Positions 16,333 to 18,657 of a stretch of 20,745 bases of DNA are shown one piece after another; position 1 is the stretch's first letter; each line of letters starts with the position of its first letter. The DNA lies in the NCBI GenBank assembly GCA_964426185.1, contig CAYRPF010000063.1, forward strand, positions 1 through 20,745. The letters run 5' to 3'. This DNA comes from an uncultured archaeon (GTDB taxonomy: Archaea > Asgardarchaeota > Lokiarchaeia > Sigyniarchaeales > Promethearchaeaceae). The translations under genes and the position numbers were made by a program. Under the pieces are notes generated by a model. The model was not told the DNA's origin. It ran no database searches and was given only the letters and a program-made list of their open reading frames with translations.

Positions 16333-17643
16333 CTATTTAAACAATTTTTCCTTACTTTTATGCTTGACTGAAATCATTGCATCTTTAATTCTCAGCAAAT
16401 CAGAATCGATCGGAATCAATTGCTTTTTCGAACCGCGTACTATATCAACCGGTTTTATTTCAGTGCCTTGTAAAGAAGTCATCTTTCCAAAGTTTCCGTT
16501 AATAACATATTCCATTGCATGATATCCATAACGCAAACCCAGCACACGATCGTAAACATTTGGAGTGCCAGATCGCATGGTATGACCGAGAACAACCGAT
16601 CGAATCTCGTAATGTGCATGGCGTTTATTAAAATATTCCTTAATATCATCTCTTTTCTGCAATTCTTGTTCAATTTTTTTTGCTATATTCAATTTTGTTA
16701 AAATCGGGTTGCCAAAACTATCCTTTGGTAAAGATTCAATATCTTCTTGACTGATTGTAGTAAAATCACGCTTCAATGAATTTGAACTGGGATAAGCGCC
16801 TTCAGAACATGCAATAATGTGAAATTTATAACCAGCATTAGCTCTTTTCTTCAAGACATCAACCACATCTTGTTCAAAATCAAATGGAATTTCAGGTAAT
16901 AGAATAATATCTGCTCCACTCGACAAACCAGAATAAAGTGTTAGCCAGCCTGCATCTCTTCCCATAATTTCCACGACGAAAATGCGTTGATGGGAATGAG
17001 CCGTGGTGGTTAAGTTGTCCAAAGTATTACTAGCCAGTTGAGCACCACTAAAGAAACCAAATGTGAAATCTGTACCAGCTAGATCATTATCTATCGTCTT
17101 CGGGCATGCCACCACTTTAGCACCTCCATATTTATACATAGCTGCTGCCACACCGCAAGTATCATCCCCTCCAACAGCAATCAAAGCATCAATTTTCAAA
17201 TCTTGGAATTTTGAAGCTAAATCTTCCCCAATACTTTTAGTTAATTGTTCCTTTTTTTCTGGATCTTTCAATTTTGCTACCGTTTTGAAAGGATTGGTAC
17301 GAGAAGTATACAGCATTGTGCCCCCTTTAGTGTGGAGATCATCCAAATCACCAATATCCAACACTTGAGTATAATGTTCAATCAATTCGGGAGTAAGTTC
17401 TGTTTTAGGATAATTGAAGACCTTCCACCCTTTGATGATTCCTACTACTTGAATTGGACGTTGTGTTTCTTCTGAAGCACGGAGTAAAGCACCGTAGATA
17501 ACCGCGTTTAATCCAGGACAATCACCTCCACCGGTTAAAATACCAACTCGAAGTGGATCTTGTTTCAAACTTCTTGCTTCGGTATTGCTATCTTCATTTG
17601 AAAAGGTCGAATTCATAATATGTGGGAATAAGGTGCTTCCCAT
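16333..17643 (-). CDS. pfp: PfkA-family 6-phosphofructokinase, predicted pyrophosphate-dependent (group III-like)
   Basis: GILTGGGDCPGLN, GGTMLYTSRTNP, GGDDT, PKTIDND, VEIMGRDAGW, LGHTMRSG. The exact start is uncertain. Confidence 0.88.
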   Translation of the reverse strand: MGSTLFPHIMNSTFSNEDSNTEARSLKQDPLRVGILTGGGDCPGLNAVIYGALLRASEETQRPIQVVGIIKGWKVFNYPKTELTPELIEHYTQVLDIGDLDDLHTKGGTMLYTSRTNPFKTVAKLKDPEKKEQLTKSIGEDLASKFQDLKIDALIAVGGDDTCGVAAAMYKYGGAKVVACPKTIDNDLAGTDFTFGFFSGAQLASNTLDNLTTTAHSHQRIFVVEIMGRDAGWLTLYSGLSSGADIILLPEIPFDFEQDVVDVLKKRANAGYKFHIIACSEGAYPSSNSLKRDFTTISQEDIESLPKDSFGNPILTKLNIAKKIEQELQKRDDIKEYFNKRHAHYEIRSVVLGHTMRSGTPNVYDRVLGLRYGYHAMEYVINGNFGKMTSLQGTEIKPVDIVRGSKKQLIPIDSDLLRIKDAMISVKHKSKEKLFK

Positions 17644-17833
17644 TTAAGTATAACTTTCGATTTTTCATCAACGAATTTCTATAACTATATTTAAGTAAAA
17701 ATTTTTTTCTCAACGTCACGAATTTCATTATCACCAAAGTTTTATTAGAAGATTCTACCTTACAATATTTAGATTTACGGGTTAGTTAGTACGTTAATCA
17801 CCAAAATAAAATTAAAAATTACTCAAACAACTA

Positions 17834-17954
17834 TGGCTGCCGCGCGGAATTTATTTTGTCTTTTTGGATGTCCGACCTTCTAGTCGGACTTGATTTCACC
17901 TCTTCGGAGGTTCTCTACTTTTACGAGCAGTTTGCTCGTTTCCACGCGGGGCCA
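17834..17954 (+). ncRNA. Candidate structured non-coding RNA, 121 nt: closing stem plus three internal hairpins; family unidentified
   Basis: Outer stem TGGCTGCCGCGCGGAA / TTCCACGCGGGGCCA. Hairpins GTCCGAC-cttcta-GTCGGAC (17870-17889), ACCTC-ttcg-GAGGT (17898-17911) and ACGAGCA-gtt-TGCTCGT (17923-17939). Pyrimidine/T-rich tract immediately 3'. Strand is inferred from the cUUCGg loop. Confidence 0.6.
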
Positions 17955-18048
17955 CTCTTTCTTTTTAATAATTAATCTTCGAGAAAATCATATTTTCAAG
18001 ATTCTGACAAATTTTTAAGATGATAAAAAAAAACATAAATTGAAGTCT

Positions 18049-18084
18049 AAAAGAAGAAGATTTCGATCCGAGAATCTTTCTTTC
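18049..18084 (-). terminator. Hairpin plus pyrimidine tract downstream of the THUMP gene
   Basis: Minus strand AAGATT-c-TCG-gat-CGA-AATCTT followed by CTTCTTTT, just after the TGA stop. Confidence 0.35.
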
Positions 18085-18657
18085 TCAAAAAGTAATTTCT
18101 GCTCTTTCTTTCTCAAAAAGTAATTTCTGCCGTTCACTGATAGGTTTGAAAACATCTTCTTTCCTTAAAATAGCGATTCCAGTTTGATTTCCAAAAATCT
18201 CAAATTGTAGATTCCAATCATATCCTTTTAAATCGACGGGATGTGAGATTAACGGCGCAATTTGGGAGATGAGTTCTTCAGGTGTTATCGGTGAATTTCG
18301 CTTACGAACGGTAATTCTAAATTTTGTAGAAGGATCATGACAGATGGGAGTGCACAAAATAAGATCTTGTACCGCTGTTCTAATAACGGGAATTTCAGTG
18401 ACGGTGACTACATCAATCGGAATAACTTTTTGGATAAACTGAATGTAGTCCGCATTTTTAGTATTAATAATGTCCCGTAAGTAATGTACCAATTTTCGGG
18501 GAGGAATAGAAGAATGTCCTAATATTAGGCCTTGAAAGGGAGATTTAAATAAAATGGGTGTGGGATCTCCAATGGCCATTAAGTTAAACCAAGCTTCACA
18601 TTCAGCTTGGGATTCAAACTCACGTCCAGTGGATATAATCAAGTTAAATTCATGCAT
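18085..18657 (-). CDS. Stand-alone THUMP-domain RNA-binding protein (Tan1/THUMPD1-like)
   Basis: FNLIISTGREFE..AE.E, IQKVIPIDVV, KFRITVRKRNS, I..IA..I...VDL...DW.L..EI.G..TGI.IL. Confidence 0.85.
   Translation of the reverse strand: MHEFNLIISTGREFESQAECEAWFNLMAIGDPTPILFKSPFQGLILGHSSIPPRKLVHYLRDIINTKNADYIQFIQKVIPIDVVTVTEIPVIRTAVQDLILCTPICHDPSTKFRITVRKRNSPITPEELISQIAPLISHPVDLKGYDWNLQFEIFGNQTGIAILRKEDVFKPISERQKLLFEKERAEITF

Follow-up and report, generated by a model that had tools for sequence, protein, structure and literature searches.

The DNA analysed in this study, a stretch of 20,745 nucleotides referred to here as the window, contains a structured element at positions 17835 to 17953 of the plus strand that is very probably a genuine stand-alone RNA gene of a new family. 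As our leading explanation, which is offered tentatively, this RNA of about 120 nt would form the core of a ribonucleoprotein (RNP), in which one U-rich single strand of its junction (J1/2) is bound by a uridine-specific protein. To our knowledge, the non-coding RNAs of Asgard archaea have hardly been described so far, and the element presented here represents a strongly supported, order-wide, multi-copy structured RNA.

Fold and covariation of the RNA

The element (17834–17954, plus strand) lies in a 441-bp A/T-rich gap between a phosphofructokinase gene (pfk; 16333–17643, minus strand; PF00365, E 6e-80) and the gene of a 190-aa THUMP-domain protein (18085–18657, minus strand). Its closing stem, P1, is formed by 17834–17849 and 17940–17954 and has 14 pairs in all, with a bulged G (17839), a U-G pair (17838–17950) and a C/A mismatch (17845/17944); according to the covariance model, the RNA starts at G17835. 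P1 encloses the hairpins P2 (17870–17889; 7 bp, 6-nt loop), P3 (17898–17911; 5 bp, c(UUCG)g loop) and P4 (17923–17939; 7 bp, 3-nt loop), the last of which abuts P1. All of these helices were identified by both fold and covariation.

Three junction strands, recognized by their conservation, join the helices. J1/2 (17850–17869) is a U-rich strand of 20 nt, UUUAUUUUGUCUUUUUGGAU, and is the proposed protein platform; J2/3 (17890–17897) carries a conserved UUGAUUU(C) and reads UUGAUUUC in the window; and J3/4 (17912–17922) is pyrimidine-rich (UCUCUACUUUU in the window) and ends in a conserved CUUUUAC (17918–17924), which extends into P4. The four-way junction, the U-rich linker, an A/T stretch upstream and a tract downstream had been described in an earlier note on this DNA, and in every detail and position that description agreed with the sequence and the computed fold.

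The plus-strand RNA was predicted to fold into the four-way junction with a minimum free energy of -50.4 kcal/mol (z -5.65), compared with -30.8 +/- 3.5 kcal/mol for 200 dinucleotide shuffles, none of which folded equally well. The reverse strand folded equally well or better (-51.9 kcal/mol, z -7.94), so fold energy alone cannot assign the strand.

That the structure goes beyond chance was confirmed mainly by comparison, i.e. by the folds of single homologues and by the covariation of helices. The same four-helix architecture was obtained for 21 of 22 homologues folded singly, and a MAFFT alignment of 22 copies, made without structural information, showed the same helices. In an alignment of 29 copies, which was fitted to the structure and is thus biased towards it, 90.0% of 926 cells were standard pairs, as against 39–45% when the 3' partners were slid by 1–3 columns; double changes were found in 32 of the 33 pairs, and none of 500 shuffles reached any of these measures. 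An alignment of 30 copies, fitted in the same way and including sequences from a second family of the same Asgard order (f3; the window's own family is f1), gave 90.1% paired cells versus 35–47% after sliding, again with 32 of 33 pairs double-changed.

All four helices covaried. In P1 all 12 modelled pairs were changed on both sides, while double changes affected 8/8 pairs of P2 (96.9% of cells paired) and 6/7 pairs of P4 (96.4% of cells paired). Between the window and a record of Harpocratesius, compensatory changes were seen in P1, P2 and P4, and the junction strands were identical. P3 differs in length among paralogues and is absent from f3, where an unpaired C-rich run takes its place, indicating that the order-wide core is a three-way junction. 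Every sequence was also predicted to form a mini-hairpin of 4 bp within J1/2, the columns of which never vary.

Searches for known RNA families

No match to Rfam 15 at gathering thresholds was obtained in the window or in 10 homologous loci. When matches with E-values of up to 10 were admitted, the window gave only weak ones far below threshold, the best of which was to a nematode H/ACA model on the minus strand (25.3 bits versus a gathering score of 80). The snRNA models (U1, U2, U4, U5 and U7) were not among the Rfam matches at E-values of up to 10, nor was a Rfam match to Y RNA found, and no ribozyme or riboswitch model of Rfam matched the window. ARAGORN detected no tRNA in the window, and normal 5S genes are located elsewhere in the window's own assembly (G000) and in G001, G010 and G011.

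Box C/D RNAs are defined by a C box (RUGAUGA) and a D box (CUGA) forming a K-turn, and H/ACA RNAs by an ACA located 3 nt from the 3' end. A candidate box C/D, K-turn or L7Ae site at GGAUG ... CUUGAUUU was rejected on account of an extra U and a missing C-stem partner. An H/ACA guide RNA was likewise rejected, as there was no ACA near the 3' end, and neither a C/D nor an H/ACA model reached its threshold. No paper on this RNA was found by full-text searches of the literature or by a look-up of terms in one recent survey of prokaryotic non-coding space.

Strand and predicted transcription unit

In the paired columns of the alignment, 77 cells were G-U and 13 were A-C (42 versus 6 in a second alignment). 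Since G-U pairs on the plus strand would be mismatches on the minus strand, the plus strand is favoured. The 3' flank has the same polarity. In 48 copies the first bases 3' of P1 were T/A, C, C/T, T, T, T and T, with T at +5 in 36/48, at +6 in 40/48 and at +7 in 37/48. A run of at least four T residues within 12 nt of P1 was present in 30 of the 48 copies, compared with 10 of 47 in the opposite orientation, and the mean pyrimidine fraction of the first 8 nt after P1 was 0.875 versus 0.55. T tracts are the usual terminator signal of archaea, and the pyrimidine/oligo-T tract of the window, CTCTTTCTTTTT (17955–17966, plus strand), is likely to be such a terminator, judging from the flank comparison of the 48 copies.

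Upstream of the RNA, an A/T-only stretch, AAAATAAAATTAAAAATT (17803–17820, plus strand), is a candidate promoter. In the window, the 5' part of this stretch forms an A/T box about -32 to -25 from the first G (AAAATAAA); the box is found at -32 to -25 in the Promethearchaeum paralogues (TTTTTATA) and at -32 to -23 in f3 copies (AAAATAGGGA), and the remaining upstream flank diverges among copies. Archaeal TATA boxes are located at about the position of the window's box. Taken together, the covariation, the G-U excess, the T tract, the A/T box and the unrelated gene contexts of the copies point to an independent plus-strand transcript, predicted to have its own TATA-type promoter and oligo-T terminator. 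Independent transcription of a small RNA, as put forward in the earlier note, has thereby gained comparative support.

An invariant AUG opens a frame of 35 codons in the window, which in a paralogue stops after 6 codons; a small ORF was rejected, as this frame is not conserved.

The earlier note had listed a minus-strand cis element of pfk as an alternative. Such a regulatory leader would be consistent with the position of the element 190 nt upstream of that gene, with the retention of the pfk neighbourhood in seven f1 loci (in the order PFK / RNA / THUMP) and with the good fold of the minus strand. However, the f3 members and the f1 paralogues, and with them most of the family, are not adjacent to pfk, the plus-strand G-U pairs would become A-C mismatches, and the T tract is at the plus-strand 3' end. 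We give this reading practically no credence.

Distribution, copy number and gene context

BLAST detected one copy of the RNA in the window's own assembly and homologues in relatives, with matches in 11 of 41 related genomes (the window's own assembly counted) and in 9 of 13 from f1. Covariance models R1, R2 and R3 were then built successively, the last of which includes f3 sequences. At the order level (R1, 151 genomes) the RNA was found in 10/13 genomes of f1 and 1/132 of f3, and at the class level (R2, 151 genomes) in 9/12 of f1 and 34/127 of f3, with 0/11 in the five other families (f2 and f4 to f7). At the phylum level (R3, 151 genomes) it was found in 26/26 genomes of f3 and 1/1 of f1, compared with 0/123 in the other 25 families. 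A search of 15 chosen genomes with R3 yielded 0/4 in f4, 0/1 in f2 and 0/7 in f5 to f7, and three f1 genomes of genera g2 and g3 also gave 0/3. Because the genome sets are samples with many incomplete genomes, and because the models may miss distant versions of the RNA, these negative results mean "not found in those searched" rather than "absent".

A 20-mer scan of named genome records returned 35 loci. Twenty-one of these scored 89–131 bits with R2 and were all archaeal, belonging to Promethearchaeum syntrophicum MK-D1, Promethearchaeum sp. MAGs, Ca. Lokiarchaeum ossiferum, Ca. Harpocratesius repetitus, a Promethearchaeota MAG and two "uncultured archaeon" records; four of the loci (L125, L149, L150 and L156) are those of MK-D1. 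These named records agree with the Asgard archaeon of the earlier note. Twelve bacterial records were chance word matches, 11 of them scoring below 30 bits and one giving no match. As far as searched, the RNA family thus appears to be limited to two families of one Asgard order, and the group of Promethearchaeum, Lokiarchaeum and Harpocratesius would be its range.

In IMG/VR, exact 17-mers were found at 24 loci, of which only L116 resembles a diverged member (f3-type, 36.6 bits, with a weak fold of z -1.74). It lies at 102352–102768 of a 224,826-bp contig filed as viral. This contig may represent a provirus or a giant mobile element, or it may be archaeal and have been misfiled.

The copy number is 1–6 per genome. 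In the window's own assembly, a second, divergent copy (C44:1-131, 38.7 bits) is cut by a contig end and resembles the second copy (L047) of G001, a genome of the same genus. Further members at contig ends are G015 C65:9-127 and C80:1-119, G013 C25:51-187 and G090 C440:98-211. This suggests that near-identical copies break assemblies and that draft genomes yield a minimum estimate of the copy number.

One copy keeps its place between PFK and THUMP in the seven f1 loci mentioned above, and one RNA copy is syntenic across three genera. The main f3 copy is preceded by the genes of an unknown 154–155-aa protein and a small membrane protein and followed by a radical SAM gene. The other copies lie in unrelated places, and the synteny that is kept is local only. 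The neighbourhood was analysed by comparing 72 + 25 flanking proteins with Pfam and 156 flanking ORFs with each other in an all-against-all BLAST, and in these 97 proteins and 156 ORFs it pointed to no protein partner; none of the 97 neighbouring proteins scanned was encoded by an LSM gene.

Extra copies at L042, L047, L063 and L081 are near mobile or defence genes, namely an ISAZ013-type DDE transposase, a TniQ fragment, a CAP12/Pycsar TIR effector and a STAND NTPase. Like tRNA genes, the genes of the RNA may be used by mobile elements as landing sites.

The earlier note had also named a MITE/REP-like repeat as an alternative, and a mobile or repeat element, or a mere attachment site without an RNA function of its own, would be consistent with several copies per genome, with the position of some copies at contig ends and with the transposase, TniQ, TIR or STAND genes beside some extra copies. 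It is contradicted by the low number of copies, the synteny of one copy across three genera and the compensatory changes that preserve the helices. The putative promoter and terminator are conserved as well, and the flanks show neither terminal inverted repeats nor target duplications. A mobile, repeat or attachment element of this kind is judged extremely unlikely.

Conservation of the junction strands

BLAST matches already showed stems that vary among copies and unpaired strands that stay identical. P1 is the most variable part of the RNA, and the loops are invariant. J1/2 is the best-conserved part of the whole family, with 20 consecutive invariant columns in 22 of 22 f1 copies aligned by MAFFT; a TGATTT block and parts of J3/4 are also invariant in this alignment. 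J2/3 (CTTGATTT) is invariant across f1. In f3 the core of J1/2, UUUUGUCUU.U.G, and the UGAUUU of J2/3 are retained, and together with a U tract they make up the order-wide conserved strands. Altogether, approximately 40 unpaired and almost purely pyrimidine nucleotides are frozen across the family.

The combination of drifting helices and frozen unpaired strands suggests that the strands are read by something else. Helices P1 to P4 would then serve as a frame, in which sequences drift and pairing is kept, and this frame would hold three nearly invariant, unpaired, pyrimidine-rich strands. The 20-nt J1/2 (UUAUUUUGUCUUUUUGGAU), which consists of two tandem Sm-site-like U tracts, each with a terminal G, would be the strand on which a uridine-specific RNA-binding protein docks.

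A conserved, unstructured intergenic element with a J1/2-like motif was detected in four genomes of genus g6 (Promethearchaeum; L016, L019, L023 and L029). The motif lies just past the stop codon of a HAD-hydrolase-like gene, and the element carries three spaced repeats of the UUUUGYCUUUU type, followed by a UUUUCCUCYCUU tract. This element may be a degenerate relative of the RNA or a second RNA binding the same factor.

The strands could alternatively be read by RNA. A trans-acting regulator would use the roughly 40 conserved unpaired pyrimidines to pair with purine-rich RNA, such as Shine-Dalgarno sequences or A-rich tracts, and J3/4 (CCUCCUUUUAC in many copies, CCCUCCUCCCCC-type in f3) would mimic the anti-Shine-Dalgarno sequence of 16S rRNA. 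In agreement with this idea, the 3' end and trailer of the G001 16S rRNA (L082, 2985–3005) read GGATCACCTCCTTTAC, which is close to J3/4 of genera g5 and g6. J3/4 of the window and of G001, however, are without CCUCC, and the anti-Shine-Dalgarno likeness is thus not a constant of the family. Duplexes of J1/2, J2/3 and J3/4 with the G001 16S and 23S rRNAs were no better than those of 30 shuffles each, no long complementary site was found elsewhere in the window's assembly beyond low-complexity matches, and antisense seeds usually vary between paralogues, whereas the strands in question are invariant. Regulation by base pairing is quite unlikely on this evidence.

As a separate observation, the last 10 bases of GGATCACCTCCTTTAC are nearly those of J3/4 in many g5 and g6 copies (CCUCCUUUUAC), and not those of J3/4 in the window. 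A role as a guide for rRNA was also considered and was rejected on the energies of the junction-strand duplexes relative to shuffles.

Catalytic and ligand-binding RNAs, too, typically have stems that vary and covary around junction nucleotides that do not change, and in a new ribozyme or orphan aptamer the junction nucleotides would form the tertiary core. Folded catalytic cores, however, are not usually made up almost entirely of U and C, as the invariant strands are, P3 is lost entirely in f3, and there is neither a downstream gene on the same strand nor a Rfam ribozyme or riboswitch match. This makes a ribozyme or aptamer very improbable.

Three observations argue for a protein rather than an RNA as the reader of the strands: they are invariant between paralogues that are otherwise different, their pairing with rRNA is no better than that of shuffled controls, and the J1/2 motif occurs three times, unstructured, in the four Promethearchaeum genomes mentioned above, in the manner of a modular binding site. 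An action through protein binding at the junction strands is, on this pattern of conservation, reasonably probable.

Candidate protein partners

The leading candidates for the protein partner are three Sm-like (SmAP) proteins of the window's own assembly, which contains three Sm-fold genes of 84–89 aa; one of the encoded proteins matched archaeal SmAPs and LSm6/SmF in the PDB with E-values down to 9e-12. According to PMC12817955, uridine-rich RNA is bound by SmAP rings, and TACK and Asgard archaea typically have three smAP genes. The strand that would be bound is single-stranded between P1 and P2 in the computed folds. It includes UUUGUCU, the core of the U7-type Sm site, and UUUUUGGA, that of the spliceosomal type; the two sites are given as AAUUUGUCUAG and AAUUUUUGGAG, respectively, in PMC7491329. 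Against the consensus R-A-U(4-6)-G-R, J1/2 of f1 reads U-A-UUUU-G-U and C-UUUUU-G-G, neither of which is a full match, and J1/2 of f3 reads G-A-UUUUU-G-U (GAUUUUUGUCUUUUGG), which is also short of the full Sm consensus.

Other RNA-binding domains were searched for as well. The TROVE/Ro domain (PF05731) was found in 0/4 genomes, while the control matched in Deinococcus and Bacteroides, and the RRM domain was found in 0/5 genomes searched. A search for La (0/5 genomes) was uninformative, as its control also matched nothing. A SmAP-bound RNP was ranked first on the basis of the Sm-site cores, the Sm-fold genes, the binding of uridines by SmAPs and the negative TROVE and RRM searches.

In the window's own assembly (34% G+C), each kb of strand has on average 1.18 words of the type A-U4-6-G-R, and a resemblance to Sm sites alone carries little weight at such a frequency, as the earlier note had cautioned for an AT-rich genome. 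Of 151 genomes of the class, 150 had LSM genes, irrespective of a match to the RNA, and being nearly everywhere these genes provide no co-occurrence signal with the RNA. Moreover, the Sm rings of archaea are homomers that are formed in advance, and with J1/2 in a loop closed by P1, such a ring could bind the strand by its face only and could not be threaded onto it. Of the earlier proposal that the linker resembles a Sm/Lsm-binding site, the linker itself proved to be the most conserved part of the RNA, identical over 20 nt in all 22 f1 copies, and the binding of Sm proteins stands as a prediction. A Sm-like identity of the bound protein is plausible on these grounds and is proposed with reserve.

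A protein-binding or sequestering RNA whose partner is not Sm-like would fit the pattern of conservation equally well, as well as the missing co-occurrence or neighbourhood tie to LSM genes. The KH domains of the termination factor aCPSF1, the cap proteins of the exosome or an uncharacterised Asgard protein would be possible partners, and aCPSF1 is described in part of PMC8716108 as cooperating with terminator U-tracts. No test pointed to a candidate protein of this kind, including the RRM search in five genomes, and a non-Sm partner is regarded as unlikely, if worth keeping in mind.

Resemblance to small RNP RNAs

Returning to the preferred reading, a RNP core with J1/2 bound by a uridine-specific protein, the closest analogues include the Sm-class snRNAs of eukaryotes (U7 and U1/U2/U4/U5), which like the RNA described here are short and have a single-stranded U-rich site ending in G between helices. 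They are also stable and independently transcribed, as is predicted for the present RNA. Unlike in these snRNAs, the site of the window RNA is placed within a multi-helix junction closed by P1. In eukaryotic snRNAs the Sm site lies between a 5' domain and a 3' hairpin. The window RNA is without an antisense 5' arm. A presumed likeness of J3/4 to loop 1 of U5 snRNA was given no weight.

In its strictest form, the Sm hypothesis would make the RNA a Sm-class RNP core, with tandem U7-like and spliceosomal-like sites and with one or two SmAP rings that encircle or cap it. We consider the strict form improbable. If true, it would be the first prokaryotic counterpart of a eukaryotic snRNP-type particle, situated in the presumed ancestral lineage of eukaryotes, and would give a direct handle on the roles of Sm proteins before the spliceosome. 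The pre-spliceosomal role of Sm proteins is an open question in eukaryogenesis, and J1/2 is of the type that they read.

Y RNAs, the Ro-associated RNAs of animals and some bacteria, are about 100–120 nt long, and their ends form a closing stem with a bulge. They have large internal loops rich in pyrimidines and a U tract at the 3' end, a genome encodes several paralogues of them, and their lower stem is the conserved part. The RNA of the window is similar in size, in its bulged closing stem, in its pyrimidine-rich loops, in its predicted 3' U tract and in its paralogues. Unlike in Y RNAs, the closing stem, which has a bulge or mismatch, varies in sequence between paralogues. By analogy, the RNA would thus functionally resemble a Sm-class or Y-type small RNP RNA while being a member of neither, given that no model matched, that Ro was not found in the four genomes searched and that the lower stem is variable.

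Archaeal non-coding RNAs of Sulfolobus, Haloferax and Pyrococcus are described in part of PMC12817955 as being bound by SmAP1/2 via U-rich tracts. As presented in that part, the SmAP-associated RNAs are heterogeneous and include no such structured family, in contrast to the window family with its fixed junction and invariant 20-nt site.

The CsrB/RsmZ-type RNAs of bacteria sequester proteins by means of short binding motifs repeated in unpaired regions. Both there and in the present family the motifs are displayed between helices, and at the second, g6-type locus the motif is present three times. The two systems differ in motif, partner and domain of life, and sequestration by the archaeal RNA would be no more than an idea drawn from this comparison.

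Both long-cultured strains, P. syntrophicum MK-D1 and Ca. L. ossiferum, carry the RNA, which can therefore be tested at the bench; for the MK-D1 culture, an RNA-seq library is described in PMC7015854. Even with another partner, it would be a new lineage-specific ribonucleoprotein, and its covariance model can be used for genome annotation.

Other features of the locus

Downstream of the RNA, an A-rich region (18011–18091, plus strand) gave weak matches to Plasmodium C/D-box snoRNA models (E 0.5–8; 19.7–25.1 bits versus gathering scores of 50–55), most likely due to base composition. At 18075–18130 there is a perfect tandem duplication of a 28-bp unit, TCTTTCTTTCTCAAAAAGTAATTTCTGC (2.0 copies, 100% match), which overlaps the 3' end of the THUMP-domain ORF. 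As 28 is not divisible by three, the duplication may have changed the stop or the C-terminal end of this ORF.
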